NCBI GenBank assembly: GCA_964402565.1
Contig: CAYOCJ010000001.1
Location: 96,079-160,078, forward strand
Origin: an uncultured Gammaproteobacteria bacterium
GTDB taxonomy: Bacteria > Patescibacteriota > Patescibacteriia > UBA1558 > 2-01-FULL-52-15
Length of the DNA: 64,000 bases
Direction of reading: 5' to 3'
In this document: one piece after another, positions 4,663 through 35,800 of the stretch
Layout: the number at the start of each line of letters is the position of its first letter
Position numbering within the stretch: the stretch's first letter is position 1
Position numbers and translations under genes: made by a program
Notes under the pieces: generated by a model
The model's input: only the letters and a program-made list of their open reading frames with translations
Databases searched by the model: none
What the model was told of the DNA's origin: nothing

Positions 4663-4674
4663 TATTTTTTTGTT

Positions 4675-7782: not shown

Positions 7783-7828
7783 GCTTCGAAAACGTCCGCA
7801 TGACGATTTCCGTCACAAGGAGTGCAGG

Positions 7829-9643: not shown

Positions 9644-9648
9644 TCCGC

Positions 9649-9686
9649 GTGGCGCGGTGCAGTGCTTACGCGCAGCACCGCGCCAC
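9649..9686 (+). terminator. 12-bp perfect hairpin GTGGCGCGGTGC/GCACCGCGCCAC
   Basis: The inverted repeat was read directly. It is followed by ttaaccgactcatttctttt. Confidence 0.4.
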
Positions 9687-9736
9687 TTAACCGACTCATT
9701 TCTTTTAACGATCGCAACAGATAGAGGGAAAAGACG

Positions 9737-10531: not shown

Positions 10532-10560
10532 GCAGTTCTTTCAGTAAGTAACCACACTTG

Positions 10561-10606
10561 GGGAGAGGAGTATCCAAAAAACGGATGCTTCTCTCCCTCC
10601 TTTCTC
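10561..10606 (+). terminator. intrinsic terminator
   Basis: GGGAGAGGAG-17 nt-CTTCTCTCCC forms a 10-bp stem with one G:U pair, followed by tcctttctc. Confidence 0.5.
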
Positions 10607-10723
10607 AATAGAGATTTGCATCGAATATATTCGTTGCAGTTCTTTCTTCCCGAGAGACGAACGTTTTTCGGGAAGTGAACATTGAAAATGTTAGTGGAAA
10701 AACTTCGAAAAAAGGAGACCATC

Positions 10724-12109: not shown

Positions 12110-13179
12110 ATTCTCCAGAGCTTTTGTCTCGGATCAAAGGATGTCTCATGGGTGTTGCCATTGGCGACGCCATGGGGATGCCCTGGGAACTCATGACTCC
12201 TGAAGAGATCTCCGCGGCCACGAAGGGTAATGGGGTCAATGGTTTCGCTAACCCAGTTCAGCGCAAGATCAAAGGTACTGCTGCTCATCGGGCAGGCGAA
12301 ACAACCGATGATTGGCAGCTCACCGCTGCGATAACCCGTTCCCTCGTCATGTGCGGCAGCTTCGACACAATCTACGTTGCTCGCGAGCATGTGGTCGAAT
12401 TTGATCGCTGCCAGTTCGGCTGGGGCGGTACCACGAAAACGTCGCTCAGGAACATCAAGAAGTGGTTCGACAGCCGCGGACATGAAGGTCAAAATCCATG
12501 CCAGCCTGCTCCGGACCGAGGTCCGGGCAAAGGCTCTGGTAATGGGGTCGCGATGAAGGTCGCACCGCTTGGCCTCTTCTTCCAGCACGAGGAAGACGAT
12601 GCCATGGCTGAAGCCATTGCTGACCTGGGTCTCATGACGCATTCAGATCCCCGAGCCTGGATTACCGCGTATCTCGTCGCCCGCGTTATCGCAGATGCAT
12701 TGTACACCGGTTATGAGATCGGCCATCAGAAACAATGGGGCCTCGATGCACGGCAGCTTGTCGTCACTTTGATGACACGAGCTGCAGAATTCGAGGAGGT
12801 GACGCCATTTGGAGAAAATGGCGAAGTCGAGGGCAAGGTGACAGGCCGCTGTCTGCAGCTTGCAAGCCTCATTGATTCAAGCGAATTGTACGGCGACGCG
12901 GCGATCGCTCGCCGAACGTTCGGTACTGGCTGCTTCTGCATGGAGTCGGTTCCTTTCGCTCTCGCGACCTTCCTGAGGCATCCGACTGATTTCAAGACGG
13001 GCGTCCTGGAAGCAGTGAATGCCGGCGGTGACACTGATTCGACAGCCAGCATGGTCGGTGCCATGATTGGCGCTAATGTCGGCATCGAGGGCATACCGCC
13101 TGCATGGTGCAATTTCAATCCCAAGTTCCAGGAAGCGATCGACCTGAGCCAGCAGCTTTTCGAAGTAGTTACCCGCTAA
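12106..13179 (+). CDS. ADP-ribosylglycohydrolase family protein
   Basis: The N-terminus CLMGVAIGDAMGMPWE matches the ARH/DraG GxAxGDAxGxPxE motif. The start overlaps the upstream stop as ATGA. Confidence 0.6.
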   Translation: MNSPELLSRIKGCLMGVAIGDAMGMPWELMTPEEISAATKGNGVNGFANPVQRKIKGTAAHRAGETTDDWQLTAAITRSLVMCGSFDTIYVAREHVVEFDRCQFGWGGTTKTSLRNIKKWFDSRGHEGQNPCQPAPDRGPGKGSGNGVAMKVAPLGLFFQHEEDDAMAEAIADLGLMTHSDPRAWITAYLVARVIADALYTGYEIGHQKQWGLDARQLVVTLMTRAAEFEEVTPFGENGEVEGKVTGRCLQLASLIDSSELYGDAAIARRTFGTGCFCMESVPFALATFLRHPTDFKTGVLEAVNAGGDTDSTASMVGAMIGANVGIEGIPPAWCNFNPKFQEAIDLSQQLFEVVTR

Positions 13180-13194
13180 CACAACCCTAACCGG

Positions 13195-13228
13195 AGGAGC
13201 ATTCTAGAAAACTAGAGTGCTCCTCCCG
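13195..13228. terminator. 15-bp hairpin GGAGGAGCATTCTAG-aaaa-CTAGAGTGCTCCTCC
   Basis: Inverted repeat with one G:U pair and no clear T-tract. It may act as a terminator or an RNA-stability element. Confidence 0.35.
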
Positions 13229-13318
13229 AAAGAATATTTGCTGAATACTTTGGCACATGTTCTTTCGCCTATGAATGACGAAAACGTTCATCACAATTAA
13301 CAATAGAGAAAAAGGAGA

Positions 13319-13879
13319 ATGCAGATGAAGCGCGAAACGCTCCATAAGGGTTTTTTGACCGTCGAAAAGATCACCTACGACGGCGGAATCACCAGGGAGA
13401 TCATTCGGGCAAGCAATTCTGTGAACCTTTTGATCTTCGACCGGTCCAATGACGAAGTGATCCTGGTGCAGCAGCGTCGGGAGCCTATGCTCAGTGTACA
13501 CAATCCGACCGGCATGATCATCGAAACCGTCGCAGGACGGTTCGATGTGAATCTCGGCGCGCAGCAGCTCGCGGCAAAAGAGGCTTTCGAAGAGGCCGGC
13601 ATCGAGATCGACCCTTGGGACATCGAGCTCCTGAATAATGGTAAGCCGATGGCTCTTTCTGCGGGCGTTCTCACCGAGTGTGCGTACCTGTGTTTCGTGG
13701 AAATTGACGAGAGCAATAAGCGTCAGTCGGGAAATTTTTTCGGAACGGACCCGGGCGAGCACACCGAACCTGTGCGTATCCCGGTCGTGGCACTCGACAG
13801 AATCGATTTCCAGGATGTTCGCGTCTTCGCACTGGTGCAGTACCTGTTGCGGAAGCTCGAGCAAGAGCAGCGGGGGTAA
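13319..13879 (+). CDS. Nudix hydrolase, probable ADP-ribose pyrophosphatase
   Basis: ETVAGRFDVNLGAQQLAAKEAFEEAGIE fits the Nudix box GX5EX7REUXEEXGU. Confidence 0.6.
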   Translation: MQMKRETLHKGFLTVEKITYDGGITREIIRASNSVNLLIFDRSNDEVILVQQRREPMLSVHNPTGMIIETVAGRFDVNLGAQQLAAKEAFEEAGIEIDPWDIELLNNGKPMALSAGVLTECAYLCFVEIDESNKRQSGNFFGTDPGEHTEPVRIPVVALDRIDFQDVRVFALVQYLLRKLEQEQRG

Positions 13880-13880
13880 A

Positions 13881-15125
13881 ATGCCAACACCGATCATCGA
13901 ATCCCTCATGGACGTGGACTTCTACAAGTTCACTATGGGTTTGGTTGCCTTCAAGAAATATCGGGACGTGCCGGTCCGGTATCGCTTCAAGAATCGGACA
14001 ACGATTGCCGATGCTTCGATGGCAGAAGTCGTTCCTGAGGCACGGCTTCGCGAAGAGCTTGACCACGTCCGAACGCTGCGCTTCACGAATACGGACCTTC
14101 ACTACCTTCGCGGCACCAACGAATACGGCGACCGCATGTTCCCTGAAGACTACCTGCTGTTCCTGAAAGACTTTCAGCTGCCTCCCTATGAGCTCGTGTG
14201 GACTGAAGAACGAAAGGAGCTTGAGTTTTTCGGAGCATGGCCTGAAGCCATGCACTGGGAGACTATTGCCCTTTCGATCATCAACGAGCTGTACTTTAGC
14301 TATGTTTGTTCGGAAGGCAGTCAATTCCGTCGAGATCTGTATCGTGCTGAAGCGATAGGCAGACTCGCTGACAAGATCATGGTCTTGCGCGATCGTCCGG
14401 ATATCACGATAAGCGACTTCGGTACTCGCCGCCGGCTCAGCCGAAGCTGGCAGGAATACGCAGTCGCGTCGTTGGTGGCGGAACTTCCGCCTGGGCAGTT
14501 GCTTGGCACTTCGAATGTGAAGCTTGCCATGGACCTGGGGCTGCTGCCCATGGGTACTTCAGCCCATGAGATGCCCATGGTGCTGTACAGCATCCATCAC
14601 GATACGGATGAAGGAATCCTGAGTGTCCAGCAGCGGGTGCTTCACGATTGGTGGGATACGTACGGTGCAGGTCTTTCGATCGCGCTTCCGGACACATTCG
14701 GAAGCGAGTACTTCTTCCGGACTATGACTGCAGAGCAGGCAGCAGCATGGAAAGGTTTGCGCCAGGACTCCGGTGACCCGATCGTTTTCGGCGAACGCGC
14801 GATTCGGTTCTACGAGTCGCATGGGGTTGATCCGACCGAGAAGCTCATCGTCTTCAGCGATGGTTTGGATGTCCACACCATGCTGAAGATTGCTGACCAT
14901 TTCAAAGGCCGCATCAAGTGCACCTTCGGCTGGGGCACGAACCTGACCAACGACACAAGTATTCCGGCACTTTCGATGGTCATCAAGGTCGTCGAAGCCA
15001 ACGGTCGGCCTTCGATCAAGCTTTCGGATAACCTGGCGAAGGCAAGCGGCGACCCGGCTGAGGTCGAACGAGCCAAACGCGTGTTCGGCTATACCAACAC
15101 GCTGTCACAGGAATGCATCTACTGA
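13881..15125 (+). CDS. pncB: nicotinate phosphoribosyltransferase family protein
   Basis: The N-terminus MPTPIIESLMDVDFYKFTMGL carries the DxYKxTM motif. Length is ~415 aa. The ATG at 13881 falls 1 nt after the upstream stop. The longer track ORF from 13638 is a false 5' extension. Confidence 0.7.
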   Translation: MPTPIIESLMDVDFYKFTMGLVAFKKYRDVPVRYRFKNRTTIADASMAEVVPEARLREELDHVRTLRFTNTDLHYLRGTNEYGDRMFPEDYLLFLKDFQLPPYELVWTEERKELEFFGAWPEAMHWETIALSIINELYFSYVCSEGSQFRRDLYRAEAIGRLADKIMVLRDRPDITISDFGTRRRLSRSWQEYAVASLVAELPPGQLLGTSNVKLAMDLGLLPMGTSAHEMPMVLYSIHHDTDEGILSVQQRVLHDWWDTYGAGLSIALPDTFGSEYFFRTMTAEQAAAWKGLRQDSGDPIVFGERAIRFYESHGVDPTEKLIVFSDGLDVHTMLKIADHFKGRIKCTFGWGTNLTNDTSIPALSMVIKVVEANGRPSIKLSDNLAKASGDPAEVERAKRVFGYTNTLSQECIY

Positions 15126-15136
15126 TTTTTTCTCTC

Positions 15137-15214
15137 GCGGTGGAGGTTTGGACCACAAGTCCCCTCCACCGCTCCTTCTTCGAAAAACTGACTCCGTTGG
15201 TTCTTCGAAGAAGG
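15137..15214 (+). terminator. tandem hairpins after pncB
   Basis: GCGGTGGAGG-16 nt-CCTCCACCGC at 15137..15172 and CCTTCTTCGAA-19 nt-TTCGAAGAAGG at 15174..15214 are both perfect inverted repeats. Confidence 0.45.
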
Positions 15215-15277
15215 AATTGTTCTTTCACATTTCAACAGGAATATAAAACCATCGCAGTATTGCGACGGGGGTGATCT

Positions 15278-16246
15278 ATGCGTCGACATCCGGTTGTGTT
15301 CGCCTGTCCGCAAATGCATCCGATATGGACCGGCATGGCTGTTTCATCAGTCGGAGGTCCGTGCAGCGGAGGTAAGATCCGCTGGGATTCGTTCAACGAC
15401 GGTTGGCCGAACATCAAGATCGATGACACGAGCGTGGTCGAAGGACATGACATCGTTTTTCTCGCGTCATTCGCCAAGCCAGGGGACATTTTCGAGCAAT
15501 GCGGCATTCTGTATGCATTGCCCAGCTATGGCGCTCGGTCGCTTACGGTCATTCTTCCTTTCTTTTCGACCGGCACCATGGATCGTGTCGATCAGGACGG
15601 TGAAATTGCCACAGCAAAAACTCTGGCGCGGATGCTTTCTCAGATTCCGCATTGCCACGGTTCAGGGCCGGCGCAAATCATCATTCTCGATATCCATGCC
15701 CTGCAGGAGCAGTTCTACTTCAGCGACAATGTGCGCGTGAAGCTCATCAGCGCCATGCCGGCGATCCGCGATGCCATCGTTCACAAGCTCGGGCGCGACG
15801 TCAGGATCGCCTTTCCCGACGAAGGAGCGCGGAAGCGTTTCAAGAAATTCTTCGAAGGATTCGAACTCATCACGTGCGACAAGCGGCGCGAAGGCGACAA
15901 GCGCATCGTCACTATCAAAGACGGCGACCCTTCTGGTAAGAACGTTGTCATCGTTGACGATCTGATCATGAGCGGCGGAACAGCTATAGAGTGCGCTGCT
16001 GTTCTGCGTGCCGCAGGAGCATCTACGGTTAGTCTGGCTGCCACACATGCGGTTATGCCAGGGGATGCCCTGTACCGTATGAAGCAGTCGCCTCTCGATC
16101 ACATCTGGGTGACAGATTCATGTCCGCGGATTGCAGAGAATATTACTGTACTCACCGATCAAAAGATCGCACACCCGTTCACGATGATTCCTTTGAGCCA
16201 TCAGTTCAAGCGAGTCGTCTACGACGTCAGTGTGCGCAATCTCTAA
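15278..16246 (+). CDS. ribose-phosphate pyrophosphokinase family protein (PRPP synthetase-like)
   Basis: NVVIVDDLIMSGGTAIECAAVLRAAG is the PRPP-binding loop. The N-terminus is atypical for canonical Prs. Confidence 0.6.
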   Translation: MRRHPVVFACPQMHPIWTGMAVSSVGGPCSGGKIRWDSFNDGWPNIKIDDTSVVEGHDIVFLASFAKPGDIFEQCGILYALPSYGARSLTVILPFFSTGTMDRVDQDGEIATAKTLARMLSQIPHCHGSGPAQIIILDIHALQEQFYFSDNVRVKLISAMPAIRDAIVHKLGRDVRIAFPDEGARKRFKKFFEGFELITCDKRREGDKRIVTIKDGDPSGKNVVIVDDLIMSGGTAIECAAVLRAAGASTVSLAATHAVMPGDALYRMKQSPLDHIWVTDSCPRIAENITVLTDQKIAHPFTMIPLSHQFKRVVYDVSVRNL

Positions 16247-16259
16247 GGAAGGAGGAACT

Positions 16260-18287
16260 ATGACGAAAGCAGAACAGCGAAAGAAATTCCTCGACATTCG
16301 CGAACACAACTTCGCGCGCGTCGCAGTCGTGATTCCACGCGTGTACCTGTCTGATCCTGTACGCAATGCACAGGAGCACATCAGGCTGCTCGAAGCAGCA
16401 TACAATGCGGGCTGCGTGTACGCGGTGTGCCCTGAGCTGGGACTTACCGGCTATTCGAACGGCGACTTGTTCTTCAGCGATGCGCTGCTCGATGAGTCGA
16501 TGCAAAGTCTTCGGACCATCATGGAATGGACGAAGGGCAAGAACCTGCTTGTGTCTGTCGGGATGCCTTTGCGAGTCGGTGACGCACTCGCGAATGTAGC
16601 CGTAACCATTCGTTACGGTGTTCCGGCTGCGATCGCACCGAAATCCTACTTGCCGAATTACCGCGAATTTTACGAGGGGAGGCATTTCGCTCCGGCTCGT
16701 GATCTGCAGCTGATAAGCATGAAGTTCCTCGGCCACGATGTTCCGATCGGAAACAACATTCTGATCGATCTTGGCCGCGACCTGACCATCTTCACTGAAG
16801 TATGCGAGGATGGATGGGTACCGATTCCACCGAGCTCTCTGGCTGCGCTTGCAGGCGCGACGATCATCGCGAATTTGTCTGCGTCGAACATCACGATCGG
16901 CAAGGCTGCATATAGGCGAGATCTTTTCGTCGGAGCTTCCGGAAGGAATGTAGCTGCGCAGCTTTACTGTGCTGCCGGCTATGGCGAATCGTCGACCGAT
17001 CTCGCGTGGGATGGCGACGGATTCATCGCAGAACGCGGCGAACTCATGGCCGAAGTGAAGCGTTTCGAACGCGAGGGATCGTATATCATCCATGATGTCG
17101 ACCTGACGATGCTGCGGAATGACCGCATGCGCCAGACCTCGTTCTGGCAAAATGCGACCGACAACCGTCGCAATTTCATTCGAGTCATGGTCGATGAGGA
17201 AAGCGCGCTCAGCAGTTTCGGCAAGCCAATCGCTGACTACAGCACGCTCAAACGCTCGATAGCGCCGTTTCCGTTCGTACCTCAGAACGCTGCTTCGCGC
17301 GACGAGCGATGCCGTGAAACCTTCATGATCCAGGCTACGGCTCTTGCCCGCCGGCTCGAACAGATGCCGGATGCACAGCGGAAGGTCGTGATCGGGATCT
17401 CCGGAGGTCAGGACTCGACGCATGCTCTGCTCGTCGCAGTCCACGCGATGGATCTGCTGGGTCTGCCCAGAACCAAAGTCACGGGCATCACCATGCCGGG
17501 GTTCGGGACGACGAAGCGGACCAGAAACAATGCGGTTCAGCTGATGAAGGCGCTCGGCATCGTCCAAAAGCGCAAGTCGATCAACCGCATTGCCAACAGC
17601 TTCTTTTTTTCCGCCGAATACAACCCGAACGTTCATGGTACCGATCTTCTCGAGTTCGAGAACGCCCAGGCGTGGGCACGCATGCAGGTGCTCCTGAATT
17701 ACAGCTGCCGTCACGGCGGCATCGTGGTCGGCACCGGCGATCTCTCGGAGCTTGCACTCGGCTGGTGTACGTTCGGCGGCGACCATTTCAGCCACTACGG
17801 AGTGAATGGCGGAGTGCCGAAGACCTTGATCTCCTTTTTGATCGGTTGGGCTGCCGATAAGATCTTTTCGGACGAACCGGAAGCCCAGAAGGTCCTGAAG
17901 GACATTCTGGCGACGCCGATTTCGCCAGAGCTCAAGAAAGCTGCGGCAGACGGGACGATCGCTCAGCAGACCGAGTCGGTGATCGGACCGTATGCCTTGC
18001 ATGACTTCACGATTTACTACCTGATCCGCTTTGGTTTCCTGCCATCGCGCATAGCGAGGCTGCAGTATCACGCGTTTCGCGGTACGTACACGATGGCAGA
18101 GATCAAGAAGTGGATGCGTCTTTTCCTGAAGCGATTCTTCCAGACGCAGTTCAAGCGCTCGTGCCTCCCGGACGGACCGAAGGTCGGCCTGGTATGTATC
18201 TCGCCTCGGGGCGATTGGCGCATGCCGTCCGATGCGAATCCCGAAGCTTGGCTTCGGGATCTGGACACTGTTCCTGATGAGATCTGA
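16260..18287 (+). CDS. nadE: glutamine-dependent NAD+ synthetase (N-terminal CN-hydrolase domain plus C-terminal NAD synthetase)
   Basis: [11 protein letters not shown] is the PP-loop SGGxDS motif in the C-terminal domain. The N-terminal ~270 aa is nitrilase-like with [10 protein letters not shown]. aaggagga sits upstream of the ATG at 16260. Confidence 0.75.
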
Positions 18288-18313
18288 CGAGGAGTGACAC
18301 CTCGCAAAACCCA

Positions 18314-18356
18314 GGGTCCCCTGATAAGCGAAAGCTTTGACGGGGACCTTTTTTCT
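18314..18356 (+). terminator. intrinsic terminator after nadE
   Basis: GGGTCCCC-20 nt-GGGGACC followed by TTTTTTCTTC. Confidence 0.55.
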
Positions 18357-18439
18357 TCATTTGCATTTTTCTACGTCACACGTTAGGGTTGGAACGTAGA
18401 AGTTTTTTTTCAAACGTTCATTCAAAAGGGGTGGAGACA

Positions 18440-19579
18440 ATGTACGCAGCGCATGGCTTGATGAAACATGTATCGGATATCCCAACAATCGTGCTCACAG
18501 GGGGACCCTGTAGCGGCAAAACAACGGTTCTCGCCCACCTTATCAGCTGGCTTCGTGATCGCGGGTATCGGGTGTATGTCGTGCCTGAAACAGCCACACT
18601 CTTGATCAACGGGGGTTTCCCTGATCTGCCAAAGATCGCCGCAGAGAACTATCCGCGCTTTCTCGCCATTCAACGGCAGATCCTTTTCTTGCAGATGGCT
18701 TTTTTGAAAACCTTTCGCGAACTGTCGGACTCAGCGAACGGTGAATCGCAAGTCATCATCTGCGATCGCGGTCCCATGGATGGGCTTGCTTACGTCAAGG
18801 ATCGAAAAGATTTCAACTCTGTTCTAAAGTCGGTGCATCTCTCGAAGAAATCCGCGCTTGATTTCAAAGGGGTGATACACCTCGTTACAGCTGCGAATGG
18901 AGCCGAGGAGAGCTATACGCTCGAAAATAACACCGCACGTAGCGAGTCGGCTGAACAGGCGCGCATCCTGGACGACAAGACCCAGAAAGCATGGTGGGGG
19001 ACCGATCATCTCATAGTGATCGACGCATACCCGGATTTTGATCAGAAACTGCATCGCACGACTCAGGCGCTTGCGCGCATTCTGGGGATCCCGGTTCCGA
19101 TCGAGATCGAACGCAAGTACCTCGTTCAGTTGCCGATCGATTGGAGTCATCCGGTCCTGAAGGCGGCGGTTGCCTCAACGATCGAACAGCAATACGTATA
19201 TTTGTACGGCTCAGATGCCGTGGTGCGCATTCGTCGCCGCAAGCAGCAAGGTGGCTGGGTCTATACGCGGACGCGCAAGGAACGCCAGAGCGATCTTGTG
19301 AGAACGGAGATCGAAGCACGGATTACCCGTGAGGAGTACGACGCCTTGTCGGCATTTCGTGTACCGAACACGCGTATCATCCGTAAGCAGCGTCACTGCT
19401 TTGTTTGGGAGTCTCAGTATTTCGAGCTCGATGTTTTCGAGCAACCCTCAGGCAAAGCATTGCTCGAGAATGAGGCTACCGAAGAGAACGATCAAGTTAC
19501 CTTGCCGCCTTTTCTGAAGGTCTTAATGGAAGTTACCTCCGACCCCGCATACGAAAACCGAAACATGGCGAACTTGTAA
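18440..19579 (+). CDS. P-loop nucleoside kinase (NadR/ribosylnicotinamide-kinase-like) fused to a CYTH (triphosphate tunnel metalloenzyme) domain
   Basis: N-terminus VLTGGPCSGKTT is a Walker A, followed by YVVPETAT as in NadR-type RNK domains. The C-terminal ~180 aa starts IPVPIEIERKYLV, the ExExK signature of CYTH, with later YFELDVFE. Confidence 0.5.
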   Translation: MYAAHGLMKHVSDIPTIVLTGGPCSGKTTVLAHLISWLRDRGYRVYVVPETATLLINGGFPDLPKIAAENYPRFLAIQRQILFLQMAFLKTFRELSDSANGESQVIICDRGPMDGLAYVKDRKDFNSVLKSVHLSKKSALDFKGVIHLVTAANGAEESYTLENNTARSESAEQARILDDKTQKAWWGTDHLIVIDAYPDFDQKLHRTTQALARILGIPVPIEIERKYLVQLPIDWSHPVLKAAVASTIEQQYVYLYGSDAVVRIRRRKQQGGWVYTRTRKERQSDLVRTEIEARITREEYDALSAFRVPNTRIIRKQRHCFVWESQYFELDVFEQPSGKALLENEATEENDQVTLPPFLKVLMEVTSDPAYENRNMANL

Positions 19580-20663: not shown

Positions 20664-22016
20664 ATGAAAAAAATATTCGCAACTATTCTCCTGCAGTACT
20701 TTCGTTTTTTTGCCCGATTTGCCCTAGCAGCACACAGACCCGTGGTCATAGGCATTGCGGGTTCAGTCGGGAAATCATCGACGAAGGAGATTCTTCGCGC
20801 GGCTTTGCAGCCATTCGGGAAGACGCTGGCGACCGAAGGAAATTCTGAAACAGGGTTGCCGCTTTCTATGCTTGGCGTGCATGTAGAAGGGTATCGATTG
20901 CTCGATTGGATCCGATATGCAGCGCAAGCTCCATTCGGAATTTTTAATTTAGTCGGAGTGGATTTTCTTATCGCTGAGATGGGCATTGATAGTCCGCTGC
21001 CGCCGAAGAATATGGCTTACCTGCTCACGATCGTGGAACCAGATATTGCCGTCATCGTTCAGGAGTCAGCTGCGCATACCGAAAATTTTGAACCGTTGTT
21101 AACTGCGGAGGAGCGCGCAAACCTTTCTGATGAAAAACGCCTACAAAGGCTGATCGACCTGATCATCCAGGAGGACCTGAAAATGGCTATGACTGATCGA
21201 TGCACGACGCTCATCTATAATGCAGACAATGAGCAGCTTGCAAAATCTGTGAAAGCTCTGCAGGGCCAGGGTAAAAAGCTTTTTGCTTTCGGCTCATCGA
21301 ATCATCTGGATGTGTACTATCTAAAGTCGGCTATTTCTCTTGATGAAACGCGCTTTGATCTTATGGTTCTTGGCGCTCCGGTTACCGTGAAATATAATCA
21401 TGCGGTGTTGCCTGCGGAGTATCGTGAATTAACTGCTGCAGCGCTCCTGGCATGCTCAGCCGTCGGCGTCAATGTAAACCAAGCAGGCTCAGCAATCGAA
21501 AAAAACGTTGTATTGCCTAAGGGCAGGGCTACGATTCTGAAAGGAATCAATCATTCCGTCATTCTTGATTCATCATATAATGCATCGAAAGCCTCAATGA
21601 TCGCTTTTCTCGATCTGGTAGATCGTTTAAAGAAACAAACGAACAGAGTAGCGCTTGTTGTGCTTGGCGATATGCGCGAACTCGGCACTGAATCAAAAAT
21701 TGAACATGAGTCTGTCGCAAAAAAGATTCTTGAGGTTGCTGATCTTGCATACTGCGTCGGTGATCAAACGAAAGAATACGTCATGCCGCTCCTGAAAGAT
21801 AAAGTGCCGTCGAAGTGGTTTCAAAATTCAAAAGATCTGGGGAGCCATCTGAAAGAGCATATACCAGAACAAGCGATCGTGCTGTTCAAAGGATCGCAAA
21901 ATACCATTTTTTTGGAGGAAGCTATCAAATCGATCCTCGCAGATAAGCGAGATGCATCAGCATTGTGCAGACAAGAGGAGTATTGGCTGCGTACAAAAAG
22001 CAAGTCAGGATTTTAG
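20664..22016 (+). CDS. murF: UDP-N-acetylmuramoyl-tripeptide--D-alanyl-D-alanine ligase
   Basis: VVIGIAGSVGKSSTKE is the Mur ligase P-loop in its MurF-type context. Length 450 aa. Confidence 0.65.
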   Translation: MKKIFATILLQYFRFFARFALAAHRPVVIGIAGSVGKSSTKEILRAALQPFGKTLATEGNSETGLPLSMLGVHVEGYRLLDWIRYAAQAPFGIFNLVGVDFLIAEMGIDSPLPPKNMAYLLTIVEPDIAVIVQESAAHTENFEPLLTAEERANLSDEKRLQRLIDLIIQEDLKMAMTDRCTTLIYNADNEQLAKSVKALQGQGKKLFAFGSSNHLDVYYLKSAISLDETRFDLMVLGAPVTVKYNHAVLPAEYRELTAAALLACSAVGVNVNQAGSAIEKNVVLPKGRATILKGINHSVILDSSYNASKASMIAFLDLVDRLKKQTNRVALVVLGDMRELGTESKIEHESVAKKILEVADLAYCVGDQTKEYVMPLLKDKVPSKWFQNSKDLGSHLKEHIPEQAIVLFKGSQNTIFLEEAIKSILADKRDASALCRQEEYWLRTKSKSGF

Positions 22017-22030: not shown

Positions 22031-23242
22031 TTAGAGCGTAAGCAATGCTTTTTCGACTGCTTTTTTTTCGTCCCATTGTATTTCACCGTCTGCCATTGCC
22101 AGAGATTGCTCATGTCCTTTACCGGCAAGCACCAGTGTGTCGCCTGGCTTCGCTATGCTCACTGCAAAGTTAATGGCCTCTTGCCGGTCGGGGATGTCGT
22201 AGAGTAATTTTGAATTCTGCGGCGCTATGACGGTTGGATTGAGCTTTGTAAAACCTGAAATGCCTTCCGCTATCATTGCATTGATATCAGTTACATTCTC
22301 ATCGCGCGGGTCATCGGCGGTCAATATGATGACATTGGCATGATGAGAAGCGGCACGACCCATATCAGGCCTTTTTTGCGAATCGCGCTTACCCGCAGAT
22401 CCGAAAAGTACGATAAGCCTATGCTTCGTCGTTTCTTTAGTCGCTTTCAGGATATTTTCCAAAGCATTCGGCGTATGAGCGAAATCAACGATGACCCGAA
22501 AGTCTTTGTCATAGACGATCTCTTGCCTGCCTTTCGGCGCAGTGAATGATTCCAAAGAATCTGCTATCGATTGTTTTGAAATACCGAGCGTGTCCGCAGC
22601 AGCATATGCAGCCAATGCATTCATCATATTGAACGATCCAAGCAGCCGAAGGTTGAAAGGATATTTTGCAGGCGTATAGCGGGCTTTCTGATTCACTGCT
22701 GAATAGCTGATTACATTTTTTGTGCGCAGGGTCCGTGCGAGCAACTCGTATGACTTGTCGTCATAGTTGATGATCGCCGTTTCCGCAGCTTTCAAAAGTA
22801 TCAATTTTGCCTGAGAGTACCGTTCAAATGTTTTGTGATAATCCAGATGCTCATTGCTGATATTGGTCAGAATGCCGATTTTGAAATGAATACCCGCAAC
22901 ACGATGCTGGTCAAGAGCATGAGATGTTGTTTCAATCACCGCATGCGTACAACCCGCCCTGGCCGCCATGTTTAACAGTTTTTGTATCGTGAATGACGAT
23001 GGCGTTGTAACATGCAATCCGAGCTCATAGGGCATATCATCGATGAGGGCCCCAACGGTTGTAATGACTATCGCTTTTTTCCCAGCGCCGCGGAGAATGC
23101 GATACAGCATATGCGCGGTAGTTGTTTTTCCGTCAGTTCCGGTGATACCTATCACCGTTAACTTCCGTCCCGGAAAACCAAAAAAAATGTTCGCGAGAGC
23201 CGCCTGGAGCAGGTGATAAAAATTTTTAATTTCTTGCAGCAT
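22031..23242 (-). CDS. murE: UDP-N-acetylmuramoyl-L-alanyl-D-glutamate--diamino-acid ligase (MurE-type, N-terminally short)
   Basis: TVIGITGTDGKTTTAHML is the P-loop. LFGSAGKRDSQKRP and ILTADDPRDE match the MurE GxGGxRDxxKR and DNPR motifs. Confidence 0.6.
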   Translation of the reverse strand: MLQEIKNFYHLLQAALANIFFGFPGRKLTVIGITGTDGKTTTAHMLYRILRGAGKKAIVITTVGALIDDMPYELGLHVTTPSSFTIQKLLNMAARAGCTHAVIETTSHALDQHRVAGIHFKIGILTNISNEHLDYHKTFERYSQAKLILLKAAETAIINYDDKSYELLARTLRTKNVISYSAVNQKARYTPAKYPFNLRLLGSFNMMNALAAYAAADTLGISKQSIADSLESFTAPKGRQEIVYDKDFRVIVDFAHTPNALENILKATKETTKHRLIVLFGSAGKRDSQKRPDMGRAASHHANVIILTADDPRDENVTDINAMIAEGISGFTKLNPTVIAPQNSKLLYDIPDRQEAINFAVSIAKPGDTLVLAGKGHEQSLAMADGEIQWDEKKAVEKALLTL

Positions 23243-23244: not shown

Positions 23245-25692
23245 TTATCGGGATCCTAGTGAGCGAGCGAATTTTTTGAATTCATTTCCTTTTGCGATAA
23301 AATTTTTCCAGAGTGAGTAGCTCGGCGATGCGGTAGACAGGAGGCAGATGCTGCCGGCCCGCGTGTGTTTAAAAGCGAACGTGACCGCTTCTTCCATGCT
23401 TTTTGTTTGGAGTAGCGTAAATCCTTTCCGGGATTTGAGCATCCGTTTGCCGGTGTCCGGGAACAGGACGATATTCCGTATCTTATACGAGCGCAGTGTT
23501 TTTTCAAGCGCTTTGAAATCATAGCCGCGGTCTTCGCCGCCCAGCAAAATGGTATCGACTTTTTTCAGTGTCCTGATGGCCATGATGGTGGAATCCGGCG
23601 TCGTTGATATGGCATCGTCATAGAAGGTGATCTTTTTGAACGTACCGATATTCTCTAAGCGATGGGGGAGCGGTTTGAATTTTTTTATGGCCGAACGGAT
23701 TGCTGAGTCTGAAACGCCCAGGTGTCGTACCACATGAATTGCCGCACGAATATTGTATATATTGTGTTGTCCGAGCAGAGGGATCTCTGAAATTTTGAGA
23801 GGAATGCGCTCTGTGAATGGAGCTCTCAATGCGATATCTTTTGGCCCCTGATATTTAAAAATGTTTTGCTTCGCTGCATAGTATTTTTCCAAGCTGCCGT
23901 GGTAGGTCATGTGATCAGGAAAGAGGTTGAGGAGTAGCGCAATATTCGGCGAGTATTCGATATCATCGAGCATATAACTTGATAGCTCAATGACAAAGAT
24001 GTTCTTCGGATCATTTTTTTGTGCAAGCGAAACGAGCATGGGATTGCCGATATTGCCGATCAGCTTGGTTTTCTTGCCGGCTGCTTCCAGCATCGCATAG
24101 ATCAAGGAGACAGTCGTGCTTTTGCCTTTGGTTCCCGTCACGCCGATCGTGAAGTTTTTATTTTGTGAAAAAAAGATATTCGTCGCAGTAGTATAGGCGC
24201 CAGTCACTCTTTCTTTTGGAATCCCAGGCGTTTTGATGATGAGATCATAGTCAGCTTGCTTTTCCAAATATCGGCGGTCCAGTTTTTCATCGCCTATGCC
24301 AATGCGAATGCCGGGATATTTTTTTTTCAGGTAGCGTTTTGTTTCTTTTCCCTCAGTGCCATAGCCGAGCACATATATATTCTTAATGCCCAAGAAACGG
24401 AACGGTGTCGGTAAAGTCGGAGCATGTGTGGTTCTGAATACGGTCTCGATGAGTTTTTCTCTATGTTTGATTTTCGGGAGGAATGTTTTGACTATCAAGG
24501 TATCTTTGAATTTTTTTGACGCCATGGCAAGAGCAACCTGAGCTTCTTCGAAGGTACCGACGCAATCAAAGGGTTTGAACGTGCCGAAACCCAAAGTATT
24601 TTTATACAGCGGCAGCAGCTTTGGATCATCAAGCAGATTTTTCTTGAAGATTCCTATCACTTTTTCTTTAGGCAAAAATGGAGCAAGTATCAAAAATACG
24701 AAAGCGCATTTCGGGCATTCGCCGCACCAGCGCTTTCCGTTTTTTTCACGCGCGATCTTAAAGCCGATATTGCAGCTGGAAAAAAGGTAATGGTATTTCC
24801 CGTGCTTTGCGAACATCTCGGCAATGCGGATCTCGTAGAATTGCCGCAAGAGCGAGAAATAGGAAATATCCGCCGTGATGTATTTCCGCGTATATTCCTG
24901 AAGCATGGATTCAAATTCAGAGGACTTGCTCCATTGATGATTAATTTCCATTCCGCGATAGCGCATATTACCGAAGTTTGCACTTTGCTCATTGCCGACA
25001 ACGATATAGCGATACCCATAGAGCGCCGCAGAGAACAGGCCCAGGAAAGCGTAAATAGCTGAAATAGGAATATGACCGTTATATGAGCCGGGGTGAGCTG
25101 CGAAAATTTGCGGATCCAGTTTCCGCTGAATGTGAAGTGAAGGGTTTCCGATTTTTCTAATGACATCTGATACAACAGCATCCTTTCGCTGCGTTTCGAC
25201 CGCGAATGACGTTACATCAAAAGATCTGAGGAGCTCGGCGGCAACTATGGAGTCTTTCCCCCCGCCGATGCCCAGAAGCATTTTTTCAGATCTTGGGAAT
25301 GATGCTGGAGTCTCGCGTCTGACCTTCGCATGCGGAAATTTCGCGATCTGGTCCGGACGGAGCTTATTGCGGTAGAGGAATTCGCCTAAGCCTTTGCGAT
25401 ACACCGTATTCCAGAATTCAGCCTGGTCAGGCGACAATGCAAATGGCAAGCTCATTTTCGGAGGACAGTACAGTTTATAGTAGCTGATCCCCAACATCAG
25501 ATGCAGCGGCTCGAGGAATTTTTTGACCGTTGACTCAGGAAGTTTTTTTGGTGCGCGCGGCAAGATGATCTTCTCGGTAAACGTGAGAGGTTCGCGATTT
25601 GCAAAACTGATGGCATACGAAAAAGAAACGGTGCGTTTTTTCTCATCGTACCAATAGCCCCGGAAGTGGAATGCTCTTGATTTCGGCTGCAT
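23245..25692 (-). CDS. murD: fusion protein: N-terminal PP-loop ATP-pyrophosphatase-like domain with a Cys cluster, plus C-terminal UDP-N-acetylmuramoylalanine--glutamate ligase (MurD)
   Basis: The C-terminal ~400 aa has IGVTGTKGKSTT and LGGEDRGYDF, MurD signatures. The N-terminal ~400 aa has LLGIGGGKDSIVAAELL (PP-loop SGGxDS-like) and WCGECPKCAFVF (a QueC-like Cys cluster). Confidence 0.6.
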   Translation of the reverse strand: MQPKSRAFHFRGYWYDEKKRTVSFSYAISFANREPLTFTEKIILPRAPKKLPESTVKKFLEPLHLMLGISYYKLYCPPKMSLPFALSPDQAEFWNTVYRKGLGEFLYRNKLRPDQIAKFPHAKVRRETPASFPRSEKMLLGIGGGKDSIVAAELLRSFDVTSFAVETQRKDAVVSDVIRKIGNPSLHIQRKLDPQIFAAHPGSYNGHIPISAIYAFLGLFSAALYGYRYIVVGNEQSANFGNMRYRGMEINHQWSKSSEFESMLQEYTRKYITADISYFSLLRQFYEIRIAEMFAKHGKYHYLFSSCNIGFKIAREKNGKRWCGECPKCAFVFLILAPFLPKEKVIGIFKKNLLDDPKLLPLYKNTLGFGTFKPFDCVGTFEEAQVALAMASKKFKDTLIVKTFLPKIKHREKLIETVFRTTHAPTLPTPFRFLGIKNIYVLGYGTEGKETKRYLKKKYPGIRIGIGDEKLDRRYLEKQADYDLIIKTPGIPKERVTGAYTTATNIFFSQNKNFTIGVTGTKGKSTTVSLIYAMLEAAGKKTKLIGNIGNPMLVSLAQKNDPKNIFVIELSSYMLDDIEYSPNIALLLNLFPDHMTYHGSLEKYYAAKQNIFKYQGPKDIALRAPFTERIPLKISEIPLLGQHNIYNIRAAIHVVRHLGVSDSAIRSAIKKFKPLPHRLENIGTFKKITFYDDAISTTPDSTIMAIRTLKKVDTILLGGEDRGYDFKALEKTLRSYKIRNIVLFPDTGKRMLKSRKGFTLLQTKSMEEAVTFAFKHTRAGSICLLSTASPSYSLWKNFIAKGNEFKKFARSLGSR

Positions 25693-25753
25693 AGTACTGT
25701 ATTGCTATATAGTGACGTACTTATCCTACTGTAGTTACTGGAATTTTCCAAGT

Positions 25754-29441: not shown

Positions 29442-30821
29442 ATGGATGAAGAAGAGCAGCCTATAAACCCAAATGCATCCCAAGGGCCGGCAAATCCTGA
29501 CCGCATGGCGCAAGAAGCTCGTATACGGATGGCGCTCCAGCGCAGGCTATCTCTCGGCGATGAGGCAACCTTGCTTTCCGAAAAAACGGCCCATCCCCGG
29601 CGGCGCCATCGAATTAGAAATCTCCTTGTTTTCATTTTGATTATTTTCGGAGGCGGCGCATTGATCATGCTCGGCCTGAATAAGATCGTGATACCGAAAT
29701 TGCTGGACAAGCTACCCGGGCTTCTGCATTCGCCATACCAGGAACTACCCAGCTATAAGCGGACCGTAAAAGGAATTGTTGATTATTATCCGCCGATCGA
29801 TGCGAATCAGAAGCATGTAGGCATTTCTGAATTTGATCATGGAGCTTCATTTACTCTGGTCTCAAGCGCTACGGTGATCCCGCATTCAGGGCTCGAAGGC
29901 GTCTTCAGGCTTGATTTTGAAAAAACAAAAACGGCTACTGCCGAAAGCGATATCGATGTGGGCTATAAGGTCCTCTTTCCGAAGACGAAGGATTCGAAAG
30001 ATGTCGGCATCTATTTCTTTTTTAATCATTGGCCCGCGTTCCTGCAGGCTATCGGTCTGAACGGCGAAAGCCGCGGCCAATGGTTCGGATATGATTCGAG
30101 CGATCCTGCGGTATCGAAGGAAGGGTTCAATGAGTTGATCAGCTTCCTGAACCCGGAGACCAACCGCGCAGAGACACAGAGCTTCATCGATGCGCTATGG
30201 CAATATGCCTCCCGGCATGACGCGGTACAATGGAAAGTCGAACACCTGGTGCGCAGTCTGACGGACGGCACGCAGGTTACTGATATTCGCGTTGCGATCA
30301 AACCTGAACAGTTCGTTTCTATGTTGGGTTCATTTGTGACTGATCCCATCTATACCGGTGACGTAAAAAAGATCGGCGAAGCAAAGATAGCAGGAACGAA
30401 CGTCATGGGACTCCTGGGTTCATTGCGGTCTTTAAATGGTTTAATAACGATCGGCATTCGGGACCGTTTCATGCATGAAGCCAGCTGGAACTTCGATTTG
30501 AATGATAAGTCAGCCGGAACTTATCGCGGTACTATTTCCTCGACATTAGATCTGATCGAGTCGAAAAAAGAGATCGCGAAACCTGAAGAATCGAAAAGCG
30601 CTGTCGACATATTAAATTTATTTGCGGTGGACGATGGTACGACAGTATCGACGACCACGCCTGCAGCCATTGATTCAGACGGTGACGGGCTGAGCGACGC
30701 GGACGAGGCAAAATATCATACAGATCCGCTTGTGACAGATACTGATAAAGACGGTTTTACTGACGGGGATGAAGTCCGCCGGGGGTTTAATCCGCTGGGA
30801 CCCGGAAAGTTGAAAAAATAA
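29442..30821 (+). CDS. membrane-anchored protein with C-terminal Asp-rich calcium-binding-type repeats
   Basis: One TM helix, LLVFILIIFGGGALIML. C-terminus DSDGDGLSDADEAKYHTDPLVTDTDKDGFTDGDEV carries Dx[DN]xDG repeats. Confidence 0.45.
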   Translation: MDEEEQPINPNASQGPANPDRMAQEARIRMALQRRLSLGDEATLLSEKTAHPRRRHRIRNLLVFILIIFGGGALIMLGLNKIVIPKLLDKLPGLLHSPYQELPSYKRTVKGIVDYYPPIDANQKHVGISEFDHGASFTLVSSATVIPHSGLEGVFRLDFEKTKTATAESDIDVGYKVLFPKTKDSKDVGIYFFFNHWPAFLQAIGLNGESRGQWFGYDSSDPAVSKEGFNELISFLNPETNRAETQSFIDALWQYASRHDAVQWKVEHLVRSLTDGTQVTDIRVAIKPEQFVSMLGSFVTDPIYTGDVKKIGEAKIAGTNVMGLLGSLRSLNGLITIGIRDRFMHEASWNFDLNDKSAGTYRGTISSTLDLIESKKEIAKPEESKSAVDILNLFAVDDGTTVSTTTPAAIDSDGDGLSDADEAKYHTDPLVTDTDKDGFTDGDEVRRGFNPLGPGKLKK

Positions 30822-32756: not shown

Positions 32757-32831
32757 ATATACCACAGAAAGTGCATTATGTAAATATCTAATGCGTTGAT
32801 TTTTATCATATGCTTTGTTAGAGTAAGGCCT

Positions 32832-35800
32832 ATGCCTGATACGCACTATCAACCAGAACGCTTCGAGAAACATTGGCAGGATGCTTGGGAGAAAGAAGGC
32901 ATTTATCATGCCAAAGATTTTGATGCTCGAGAAAAAAGATATATTTTGGTCGAATATCCCTATCCGTCAGGCGAGGGTCTGCATGTCGGGCACTGTTTGT
33001 CGTATATAGCACAGGACATCGTATCGCGGTACTTGCGCATGAAAGGATATAATGTGCTGTACCCGATCGGCTGGGATGCATTCGGCTTGCCTGCAGAGAA
33101 TTTTGCGATCAAACATAAGATCAAACCGCAAGAAGCGACAAAACGGAACACTGAAAATTATAAGCGGCAGATACAATCGCTCGGGATTTCTTTTGACTGG
33201 TCCCGCGAGCTGAATACGACGGATCCGGCCTACTATAAATGGACTCAATGGATTTTTTTGCAATTATTTAAAGCTGGCCTTGCGGAAAAGAAAGAAGTGC
33301 CGATCAACTGGTGCCCGAAAGACAAGATTGGTTTGGCTTTTGAGGAAGTCGTTAATGGCTGCTGTGAACGTTGTGGTACTCCGGTTGAACGAAGAAATAT
33401 CAAGCAATGGATTTTGAAAATCACGAAATACGCAGACCGGCTGATCGATGACCTGAAGACCGTCAATTTTTTGCCTGCGATAGCGCAGCAGCAGATCAAC
33501 TGGATTGGCAGAAGCGAAGGTGCTGAAATTGATTTTCCTATCTCCTCGCCAGCCGTGACCGAAGTAGTGTTTGCCTCAAATAATAAAGGGAAGGTAGAGC
33601 GCATGAAAAGGCTCTTCAAGGTCGCCGGCCTTGCGGTGAAACTGAGAACGCCAGAGGACATAGGCGTCAAAGATTTCGACGTGGTCGAAGATGCAGGAAC
33701 TCTTGCGGATAATGCTTTAAAGAAAGCTACCGCCTTAGCAAAGCACACCAAGCTGCCGGTACTCGCCGACGATACTGGTTTTTTTGTACAGGGAGCGAAG
33801 ATCGATCCAGTCATGGTCAAACGCAATGCGCTTGACGGAGAAGATGAAAAAAAATTGACGATCGAACAGATCGCCGCGAAGATGCAGGCATATTATCAGG
33901 ATATCGCTGATCACGCAGGTGGTAGAGTCGATGCTGAATGGCGCAATGCGCTGTGCCTGGTAGTCCATGGGGAGAAGCCTCGCATCATCGAAGCGCTGCG
34001 TCCTGTGATCCTCACAAATGAATCGCATGGCACAGTAGACCCGCATCTTCCGCTACGAGGTTTATATATTTCTAAAGCAACGAATAAATACGCCCTGGAA
34101 CAAACAGACGATGAAGAATTACAGGAGCTCGCGCCTATAACGGAAGGGCTCAGACAGATCATCGCTCCTTCGCTCAAGGTGTTCACGACAAGACCAGACA
34201 CCTTATTCGGCGCTACCTATATGGTGCTTTCGCCGGAACATGAGTTTATCGAAAGAAATAAGGATTCGATTAAGAACTTCAAAGAAGTTTTCAAGTATAT
34301 TTCTGTTGCTAAAAATAAATCAGAACGCGAGCGTCAGGAACATAGAGAGAAAACAGGTGTTGAGTTGAAAGGCATCAAGGCAATCAATCCAGCAAATAAA
34401 GAAGAAATTCCAATTTGGGTCGCTGATTATGTACTTTCTGGTTATGGAACCGGTGCTATTATGGCTGTTCCTGCGCATGATGAAAGAGATTTTGAATTTG
34501 CGAAGAAATTTGATTTGCCGATTGTTGATGTGATAAAAGGTGACAATGAATTACATGGAATGATACTCGATGGAGTTTTAATTAATTCTGAACAATTTAA
34601 TGGACTTGAAATCGATGAAGCAAGAAAAAAAATCACTGCATTCGTCGGCGGAGAAATGAAAGTACAATATAAACTCCGCGATTGGATTTTTTCACGCCAG
34701 CATTATTGGGGGGAGCCGATCCCGATCATTCATTGTGATCGATGCGGCGCTGTGCCGGTTCCGGAAAAGAATCTTCCGGTAACACTGCCAGATGTTGAAT
34801 TCTATGAGCCCACTGACACGGGCGAATCGCCATTAGCAAAGATAACTGACTGGGTGAATGTGCAATGCCCATCGTGTCATGGCCCTGCGAAGCGTGAAAC
34901 CGATACCATGCCAACCTGGGCCGGCAGCTCATGGTATTTTTTACGCTATACTGATCCGCATAATGACAAAGCATTTGCAGATAAGAAAAAAATAGGTTAT
35001 TGGCTGCCTATAGATCTCTATAATGGAGGAGCTGAGCATACCACCTTGCACCTACTGTATTCCCGGTTTTGGTACAAGTTTCTCTATGATCAAGGGTATG
35101 TGCCTACTCCCGAACCATATCAGGTTCGCGTTCAGCATGGCATGATATTGGCGCCAGATGGGCAGAAAATGTCCAAGTCGCGGGGGAATGTGATCAATCC
35201 TGATGAGATCGTCTCGGAGTATGGTGCGGATATTTTCAGGCTCTATATGATGTTCATGGGCGAATATGACCAGTATAAAAGCTGGAACGATAAAAATCTG
35301 CAAGGTGTTGCGCGCTTCATGCGGCGTTTCTGGGATTTTGTATCATCCGCGAACATAGGCGCATCAAGTGCAGCAGCTCGCACCGCTGTCCATCGGGCAA
35401 TTCGCGACGTTTCTGCAGATCTTGAACGCCGGTCATTCAATACTGCGGTTAGCAAATTGATGATCTGCCTGAATTCGCTTGAACAAGAAAAAGCACTGAG
35501 CACAGAGGACATGCAAGCACTGCTGAAAATTATTGCGCCATTTGCACCCCATATTTCAGAAGAGCTCTGGCATTCGAAGCTCTCCGAACAAGGAACCATG
35601 CATACTGCGTCCTGGCCTGTATACGACCCGAGCGTTATCAACGAAGAAGGGGTTACGCTTGGCATTCAGATCAATGGCAAGGTGCGAGCAGATATTCTCG
35701 TCACGCCTGACATGAGCGAGGCTGATGTGCGAACTGCGGTTTTAGCGCTGGAGTCGGTGCAAAAATACGTACCAAACCTCGGATCCATAAAAAAATTCAT

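Follow-up and report, generated by a model that had tools for sequence, protein, structure and literature searches.

The 64,000-nucleotide stretch of DNA analysed here (the window) is part of contig CAYOCJ010000001.1 of assembly GCA_964402565.1, from an uncultured bacterium of the candidate phyla radiation (CPR). On its minus strand lies a single gene that joins two enzymes of peptidoglycan synthesis, an N-terminal module of the epimerase family MurL and a C-terminal Mur ligase module resembling MurD2. The encoded protein is very probably a bifunctional MurL–MurD2, which would provide the D-glutamate (D-Glu) of the cell wall by an alternative route, adding L-glutamate (L-Glu) first and converting it to D-Glu afterwards. 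A sequence-only reading of the locus had proposed such a route from the fusion of an adenylating domain to MurD, and the MurL family match, the MurD2-type residues, and the intact fusion described below lend it support. The gene and its modules are as follows.

23245..25692, minus strand: whole MurL–MurD2 fusion gene, 815 amino acids plus stop codon (open reading frame list, profile searches, database matches)
24418..25692, minus strand: MurL module, residues 1–425 (NF041275, Pfam MurL_N and MurL_epimerase_C, AlphaFold2 model, Foldseek PP-loop matches)
24385..24417, minus strand: junction between the modules, residues 426–436, TLPTPFRFLGI (conservation in 69 fusions, full-length model)
23248..24384, minus strand: Mur ligase module of predicted MurD2 type, residues 437–815, with a compact domain 1 and a shortened domain 2 (TIGR01087 at 255.6 bits, PDB matches)

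Integrity of the Fusion

The open reading frame (ORF) has 815 codons, begins with ATG, and contains no internal stop, in agreement with the earlier call. An identical protein (100% identity) is present in a public protein collection. The best 120 database matches, which comprise the window's own protein and 119 relatives at 60–70% identity, all have the full-length fused architecture; they are 782–861 amino acids long, the query is covered to 94–100%, and the assemblies behind them are independent. When 69 fusions are aligned, junction residues P428 and G435 are invariant and F431 is nearly so. In a model of the full-length protein (pLDDT 90.5, pTM 0.85), residues 420–440 have a pLDDT of 93–96 and include a short helix at 429–433. 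The predicted order of the junction points to a fixed arrangement of the two modules rather than a loose tether. A missed stop codon between two genes, which the sequence-only reading had named as one way in which its proposal could fail, does not account for the fusion, given the continuous ORF, the 120 full-length matches, and the same gene order in the closest relative.

Family Identity of the MurL Module

The NCBIfam model for MurL, NF041275, matches residues 5–419 with an E-value of 1.9e-106 and 356 bits, spanning profile positions 7–427 of 447. Precomputed Pfam annotation of the identical protein gives PF26299 (MurL_N) and PF26298 (MurL_epimerase_C); the Pfam scan run here on the window protein returned Mur_ligase_M and Mur_ligase_C only. 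The N-terminal domain is ~35% identical to the MurL proteins of Stenotrophomonas maltophilia and Micromonospora. Across 91 MurLs drawn from many phyla, 45 positions reach a conservation of at least 95%, and the domain keeps them all, among them NHQ-SK, Cys307, Cys323, Cys326, Cys329, and Cys377. By these matches, residues 1–425 belong to the MurL family, as the earlier profile proposal had anticipated.

The window protein, at 356 bits, does not reach the equivalog cutoff of NF041275, which is 700 bits. For calibration, the S. maltophilia MurL scores 825 bits and a Micromonospora MurL 396, so that only the former lies above 700. Micromonospora is a genus in which a MurD2/MurL pair has been confirmed in vitro (PMC8788868). 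Since a MurL from this genus obtains just 396 bits, the cutoff is tuned to Xanthomonadales, and the score of the window protein, which falls in the Micromonospora range, is thereby explained.

With MurL as known elsewhere (UDP-N-acetyl-alpha-D-muramoyl-L-alanyl-L-glutamate epimerase, EC 5.1.1.23; XOO_1319 in Xanthomonas oryzae), the module has in common homology over the full length, a link to a MurD2-type ligase, and the motifs GGG-DS, GH-P, NHQ-SK, SCN, WC--C-KC, and KP--CVG. Elsewhere MurL is a separate protein of ~450 amino acids, whereas here it is covalently fused to the ligase. The module further differs in falling below the Xanthomonadales-tuned cutoff and in coming from a CPR host, outside the published distribution of MurL.

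Fold and Candidate Catalytic Residues of the MurL Module

Reviews describe MurL as an ATP- and Mg-dependent enzyme that releases AMP and "lacks known conserved domains" (PMC8788868, PMC5808125), and a search of PDB sequences with the fusion found no MurL structure among its matches. An AlphaFold2 model of residues 1–432, built from 69 sequences, has a pLDDT of 94.1 and a pTM of 0.93, with loop 313–317 alone uncertain. Compared with the PDB by Foldseek, all seven matches at E ≤ 1e-3 are PP-loop ATP pyrophosphatases (probability 0.93–1.00), namely Cap9, argininosuccinate synthase, and TtuA. Cap9, which we take to be QueC-like, is the best of them (E 1.4e-4, target TM-score 0.70). Just above the threshold, up to ~1e-2, stand LarE, MnmA, ThiI, NAD synthetase, and YcfA, most of them also PP-loop ATP pyrophosphatases. 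The module is thus predicted to fold as a PP-loop ATP pyrophosphatase, in line with the ATP-to-AMP stoichiometry published for MurL (PMC8788868, PMC5808125). Its conserved motifs are listed below.

25249..25272, minus strand: PP-loop GIGGGKDS, residues 141–148, predicted to bind the ATP alpha-phosphate or pyrophosphate (conservation, model, QueC alignment)
24925..24942, minus strand: family-invariant motif NHQWSK, residues 251–256 (conservation in MurLs)
24769..24777, minus strand: SCN, residues 306–308, with Cys307 as the first cysteine of a putative four-cysteine metal site (conserved in the 91 MurLs and in 60 representatives)
24706..24729, minus strand: WCGECPKC, residues 322–329, a CxxCxxC cluster of Cys323, Cys326, and Cys329 (at least 90% conserved in 60 unbiased representatives)
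24556..24576, minus strand: KPFDCVG, residues 373–379, with Cys377 as a candidate catalytic thiol or base (invariance in representatives)

The two motifs on which the sequence-only reading had relied, GIGGGKDS and CGECPKCAF (residues 323–331), are both present. In the model, GGGKDS comes after the strand at 138–141, and its counterpart in the alignment to E. coli QueC is SGGQDS; GGG-DS is invariant in all 91 MurLs. Beyond the PP-loop, no similarity to QueC was found: when hhalign sets the MurL profile against the E. coli protein, 34 columns align, restricted to the PP-loop, at a probability of 6.5%. The earlier description of an adenylating ATP pyrophosphatase therefore holds at the level of the superfamily fold, whereas its label "QueC-type" was too specific and was dropped.

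Conservation of WC--C-KC and KP--CVG in the murL loci L003–L122 (described below) is circular, because both motifs formed the pattern by which these loci were found. The cysteine motifs were accordingly rechecked on 60 representatives chosen by similarity alone, in which P374, C377, V378, and G379 are invariant. SCN lies outside the search pattern, so its conservation is free of this ascertainment bias. In the 91 MurLs, conservation is at least 95% for each of N251, H252, Q253, S255, and K256, and the 60 representatives have them invariant or nearly so. The CxxCxxC cluster resembles the zinc site of QueC, and by this analogy Cys307 and the cluster may together form a similar metal site. Either Cys377 or the histidine or lysine of NHQWSK may take part in proton exchange on an adenylated alpha-carboxylate.

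The module shares an alpha/beta core, with the PP-loop after its first strand, with QueC/Cap9, argininosuccinate synthase, TtuA, LarE, MnmA, ThiI, and NAD synthetase, and it would be expected to share their chemistry, adenylation of a substrate oxygen with release of pyrophosphate. It differs from them in having no detectable sequence similarity outside the PP-loop, a GGGKDS loop in place of SGGxDS, and an extra N-terminal subdomain (residues 1–130). The outcome also differs, as MurL epimerises its substrate while these enzymes carry out group transfer.

The Ligase Module and Its Likely Substrate

The C-terminal half had been regarded as a clear MurD, and it passes the murD equivalog TIGR01087 (cutoff 211.95), on which the full protein scores 251 bits and residues 437–815 alone score 255.6. 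Structures of MurD are its best PDB matches. In alignment, the catalytic residues of Mur ligases are all intact: K524, N547, E569, H594, K608, T697, S791, and F798 correspond to K115, N138, E157, H183, K198, T321, S415, and F422 of E. coli MurD. Literature numbering of E. coli MurD omits Met1, and this offset was corrected in the mapping. The MurD2 of S. maltophilia scores 293.5 bits on TIGR01087, so the model cannot separate MurD from MurD2. This lack of discrimination is why annotation pipelines call such proteins "D-glutamate ligase".

Residues that distinguish the two enzymes are Asp182, Lys348, Ala414, and Leu416 in E. coli MurD and Glu197, Arg358, Pro433, and Phe435 in X. oryzae MurD2 (PMC8788868). 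The E197D/R358K double mutation switches X. oryzae MurD2 to the use of D-Glu, and the single E197D mutation alters its stereospecificity, shifting it toward D-Glu; conversely, K319T makes E. coli MurD accept L-Glu (PMC8788868). The corresponding sites in the window protein, located by alignment, are given here together with the ATP-binding loop.

24115..24135, minus strand: Mur ligase ATP P-loop GTKGKST, residues 520–526, aligned with GSNGKST (Lys115) of E. coli MurD
23914..23916, minus strand: Asp593, at the position of E. coli MurD Asp182 and X. oryzae MurD2 Glu197
23608..23610, minus strand: Ile695, at the position of E. coli MurD Lys319
23527..23529, minus strand: Arg722, at the position of E. 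coli Lys348 and MurD2 Arg358
23317..23325, minus strand: Pro790-Ser791-Tyr792, at the positions of E. coli Ala414-Ser415-Leu416 and MurD2 Pro433-Ser-Phe435

These sites were compared with 79 ligases encoded adjoining a murL gene. Position 319 (E. coli numbering) is isoleucine in 42, leucine in 36, and phenylalanine in one of the 79. Arginine occupies position 348 in all 79 and in all 120 fusion proteins. At position 414 there are 68 prolines, 10 alanines, and one serine, and position 416 is aromatic (tyrosine or phenylalanine) in 75/79 ligases, with 38 tyrosines, 37 phenylalanines, three histidines, and one proline. Across positions 182-319-348-414-416, Xanthomonadales ligases read E-I-R-P-F, reproducing the published residues, and those of Micromonospora read E-L-R-P-Y. 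Canonical MurDs keep Lys319 and Ala414 in the alignments inspected, which cover E. coli, Streptococcus agalactiae (3lk7), and chains 7sir and 8dp2; in the window protein these residues are absent, replaced by Ile695 and Pro790.

The window ligase is therefore of MurD2 type at four of the five discriminating positions (Ile695, Arg722, Pro790, and Tyr792), and the exception is Asp593. The glutamate found at this site in X. oryzae MurD2 is present in 99/120 fusion proteins, the remaining 21 (the window protein and 20 of its 119 relatives) having aspartate. Among the ligases adjoining murL, 56/79 have glutamate and 23/79 aspartate, the latter mostly from Acidimicrobiales. Since aspartate also occurs in these MurL-adjacent ligases, Asp593 is not disqualifying, yet it truly sets the protein apart from the characterised enzyme. 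The alignment to MurD and MurD2 called for by the earlier reading thus favours MurD2 at all but this one position. Judged by these residues, the segment 437–815 is a Mur ligase of MurD2 type, and its substrate would be L-Glu.

Its likeness to MurD2 extends to the Mur ligase catalytic residues, to arginine at 348, proline at 414, an aromatic residue at 416, and a residue other than lysine at 319, and to the local motifs NLFP(D/E)H, DDxISTTP, GGxDRGxD, and SPS(Y/F). Apart from Asp593 in place of Glu197, it differs from MurD2 in its size (379 versus ~460 amino acids), compact domain 1, deletion in domain 2, and position as the C-terminal half of a fusion. With canonical MurD (EC 6.3.2.9; E. coli b0088; PDB 1e0d, 3lk7, 7sy9) it shares fold and catalytic machinery, ~31% identity to the E. 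coli enzyme (117/377 aligned positions), a passing TIGR01087 score, and aspartate at 182. It is set apart from canonical MurD by the lack of Lys319 and Ala414, by arginine at 348, and by its attachment to MurL.

Fused and Split Forms of murL and murD2

MurL has been reported from Xanthomonadales, a few Alphaproteobacteria, and rare actinobacteria (PMC8788868), a list that does not name CPR bacteria, and a 2021 review limits the pathway to relatively few genera. A reference set of stand-alone genes was gathered with a DNA pattern for WCxxCxKC and KPxxCVG in high-GC codons, taking one genome per species, which yielded at least 120 loci. These were typed with hidden Markov models, one for each half of the CPR fusion. 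The loci listed include the published clades Stenotrophomonas, Pseudoxanthomonas, Frateuria, Dokdonella, Lysobacter, Micromonospora, Actinoplanes, and Devosia. Beyond the published list, they include murL–murD2 loci of Solirubrobacterales/Thermoleophilia, Acidimicrobiales, Geodermatophilaceae, Mycolicibacterium arenosum, Bifidobacteriaceae, Oscillospiraceae, Lachnospiraceae, Ruminococcus, Solobacterium, Chloroflexia, Myxococcota, Thermoanaerobaculia, Ca. Saccharibacteria, and Ca. Peribacteria.

Nearly all of the 120 loci listed have a MurL ORF beside a MurD-like ORF, the two in different frames. Most have murL followed by murD, co-directional and with overlapping ends; the two genes are divergent in Micromonosporaceae, and their order is reversed in Geodermatophilus and a Saccharibacteria genome. 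The only clean single-ORF fusion among these loci is that of a Ca. Peribacteria genome (L068). A phmmer search with the MurL module against 1.84 billion cluster representatives (50% identity) found 2,628 proteins at E ≤ 1e-3, of which 1,241 at E ≤ 1e-30, and family members occur in at least eight phylum-level groups. Among the best 150 of these matches, 21 have at least 790 amino acids and most have 440–460; domain classification of 145 of them gave 24 fused, 120 split, and one ambiguous. Named fused members belong to the Parcubacteria group (Uhrbacteria, Moranbacteria, Pacebacteria, Campbellbacteria, and Kuenenbacteria), Roizmanbacteria, and Peribacteria. Within this sampling, murL and murD2 are separate adjacent genes outside CPR and often one ORF within it.

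One 90%-identity cluster of Ca. Roizmanbacteria (P0147) contains both a near-identical 865-amino-acid fusion and adjacent genes for 448 and 417 amino acids, and in Ca. Peribacteria one genome is split (L047) and the other fused (L068). Such coexistence may be either a real fusion/fission polymorphism or the product of assembly frameshift errors, and some of the splits may be sequencing frameshifts. On a crude neighbour-joining tree of MurL domains the fused forms are scattered, with 15 parsimony changes. Because of this crudeness, and because the representatives carry no taxonomy, neither a single nor a multiple origin of the fusion is claimed. The coexistence and scatter suggest that fusion and fission are easy, as would be expected for overlapping co-directional genes.

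Gene Neighbourhood and Source of D-Glu

The fusion stands next to two further Mur ligase genes.

22031..23242, minus strand: murE, 403 amino acids, the next step of the pathway (TIGR01085 at 387.9 bits, cutoff 257.3)
20664..22016, plus strand: MurF-like Mur ligase, 450 amino acids, convergent with murE (TIGR01143 at 174 bits, below its cutoff of 288.6)

The start codon of murE follows the stop codon of the fusion by 2 nucleotides (TAA-CA-ATG). The closest relative (L125; 70% identity, GCA_964422585.1) has the order SpoU, fusion, MurE, MurF-like, as in the window, with a 411-amino-acid MurE at the corresponding place and the MurF-like ligase in the same position. In more distant relatives the fusion adjoins mraY-ftsW-murG or sits elsewhere. 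The TIGR01085 match of the window's MurE begins at profile position 70, so that the N-terminal UDP-binding domain 1 is missing, and the gene cannot be extended upstream because the fusion ends 2 nucleotides before its start. On the other side, a SpoU-family methyltransferase ORF is divergent from the fusion, with a GTG start called at 25712, 19 nucleotides from the fusion's ATG. An internal methionine 14 codons downstream (MKKKC...) looks more plausible as its start, in which case the region 25693–25753 (~60 nucleotides) would be a shared divergent promoter region.

The only MurD-like domain within the window is that of the fusion. No MurI homologue was found in the 64 kb (best phmmer E 1.4), as had been remarked from the sequence, and the 44 window ORFs of at least 90 amino acids gave no match to the families Asp_Glu_race or Aminotran_4.

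Proposed Function and Alternative Explanations

In the proposed route, the MurD2-type module (residues 437–815) would add L-Glu, converting ATP to ADP and phosphate. The PP-loop of the MurL module (residues 1–425) would then adenylate the alpha-carboxylate of the new terminal L-Glu, converting ATP to AMP and pyrophosphate. Adenylation would acidify the alpha-proton and permit a one-way inversion to D-Glu, after which the adenylate would be hydrolysed. MurE, made from the same transcript, would take up the epimerised product. The fusion probably arose when murL and murD2 were joined, genes which other phyla carry side by side in the same direction, murL first, and often with an overlap; it probably stops the L-Glu intermediate from escaping.

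Several points weigh against this assignment. The MurL module lies below the equivalog cutoff of its own family model, for which the calibration above offers an explanation. Because Asp593 is the canonical state and E197D shifts the X. oryzae enzyme, the preference for L-Glu is less certain here than for the 99/120 fusions that bear glutamate. The absence of murI and of a D-amino-acid aminotransferase holds for the 64 kb of the window, which belong to a contig of 633 kb or more. A study cited in PMC11974145 reports MurI activity in Ca. Saccharimonas aalborgensis, so the CPR as a whole is not free of MurI. Channelling between the modules is conjectural, and what is known of the CPR members of the family comes from sequences and models.

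The strongest competitor, though an unlikely one, is that the ligase is a canonical, D-Glu-specific MurD and the MurL module either secondary, for example correcting an occasional misincorporation of L-Glu, or a relic. Asp593 equals Asp182 of E. coli, the E197D mutant moves toward D-Glu, the murD cutoff of TIGR01087 is passed, and MurI is reported from CPR bacteria, as noted above; however, TIGR01087 also accepts the MurD2 of S. maltophilia at 293.5 bits, the Lys319 and Ala414 of solved canonical MurDs are replaced by isoleucine and proline, and aspartate at this site recurs in 23 of the 79 ligases next to murL. Retention of all 45 family-conserved MurL residues argues against a relic. Slightly less probable still is a non-standard stem peptide, in which the ligase would add L-Glu or another amino acid and the epimerase would act on it. 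CPR peptidoglycan has hardly been measured chemically, the MurE next to the fusion is without its N-terminal domain, and the MurF-like ligase departs from the usual type, all of which leave room for such a product, but MurE scores as a regular MurE with 387.9 bits.

That the fusion is an artefact of assembly or annotation, with a frameshift or lost stop merging two genes, is very improbable. The mixed Roizmanbacteria cluster (865 versus 448 + 417 amino acids) and the differing Peribacteria genomes (L047 split, L068 fused) would fit it, but the window ORF is continuous, many independent assemblies carry relatives at 60–70% identity with similar fused lengths and a conserved P428/F431/G435 junction, and the junction is ordered in the model. 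The chance fusion to MurD of an unrelated PP-loop enzyme for nucleic-acid modification, of QueC, TilS, or TtuA kind, might be read into the CxxCxxC motif and the appearance of TtuA, MnmA, ThiI, and Cap9 among the Foldseek matches. Against it stand the full-length MurL match (E 1.9e-106), the 45 retained residues, a QueC match confined to 34 PP-loop columns at 6.5% probability, and the absence of other PP-loop families from the Pfam and NCBIfam matches, by which this identity is effectively refuted. A bifunctional MurL–MurD2 remains the preferred explanation.

Other Features of the Window

A leucyl-tRNA synthetase of 1013 amino acids (32796–35837, plus strand) has a Ham1p_like match (ITPase, PF01725) at residues 257–391 (E 1.2e-14). 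The insertion, which is unusual for this enzyme, follows the first part of the catalytic core and precedes the editing domain (residues 459–615). At ~3988–19579 on the plus strand is a block of genes for NAD salvage and regulation, including an NrtR-type Nudix regulator, a cytidylyltransferase/NAD-kinase-like fusion, an ADP-ribosylglycohydrolase, NAPRTase, PRPP synthetase, a glutamine-dependent NAD synthase, and an AAA_28+CYTH protein. At 6–18 kb the GC content reaches 0.55–0.59, compared with 0.46–0.50 elsewhere in the window, and from this contrast the block may be a horizontally acquired island.

The region 39383–53241 (plus strand) holds a giant ORF of 3341 amino acids and downstream ORFs of 842 and 425 amino acids, all without a Pfam match. 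A bacterial TSP3-repeat protein (38630–39382) precedes the giant ORF, and a second one lies at 29442–30821. Type IV secretion-like genes at 58060–61131 (plus strand), a PrgI-family gene (58060–58524) and a TraG/VirB4-like P-loop ATPase gene (59212–61131), are flanked by ORFs without family matches.

Significance

Both enzyme families were known before, and the fusion architecture is real and common in CPR bacteria. It is visible in databases through the Pfam and NCBIfam models for MurL and through names: UniRef automatically calls some fused members "Multifunctional fusion protein" and gives stand-alone CPR members the epimerase name, and JGI names one fused member as the epimerase. Our literature searches turned up neither a description of the fusion nor a paper that assigns the MurL/MurD2 pathway to CPR. 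A specialist would not be surprised by the fusion, because adjacent pathway genes often fuse.

A wider proposal can be made tentatively, and we think it somewhat less probable than its opposite. In much of CPR, as well as many lineages outside it (Solirubrobacterales, Acidimicrobiales, Oscillospiraceae, Chloroflexia, Myxococcota, and others), the D-Glu of peptidoglycan would come mainly from the MurL/MurD2 route rather than from MurI. The fusion would be a channelling machine, and its PP-loop, four-cysteine site, and Cys377 would make it the type of a new mechanistic class, the adenylate-dependent peptide epimerases. If true, this would overturn the view of the pathway as confined to a few genera.

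The MurL family is far more widespread than the literature states: it counts 2,628 representatives at 50% identity, and its members fall into at least eight phylum-level groups. The plain MurD (D-glutamate ligase) label of standard pipelines hides the pathway. The confident PP-loop model would explain the AMP-forming chemistry and points to candidate catalytic residues. As a compact natural fusion, the protein would be a convenient single target for structure determination, for one-gene complementation of D-Glu auxotrophs, and for studies of channelling. The fusion is thus useful for annotation, for the mechanism and structure of MurL, and for understanding how CPR bacteria build their cell walls: the D-Glu step of wall synthesis in a large, mostly uncultivated radiation would be assigned to the ATP-dependent MurD2/MurL route.

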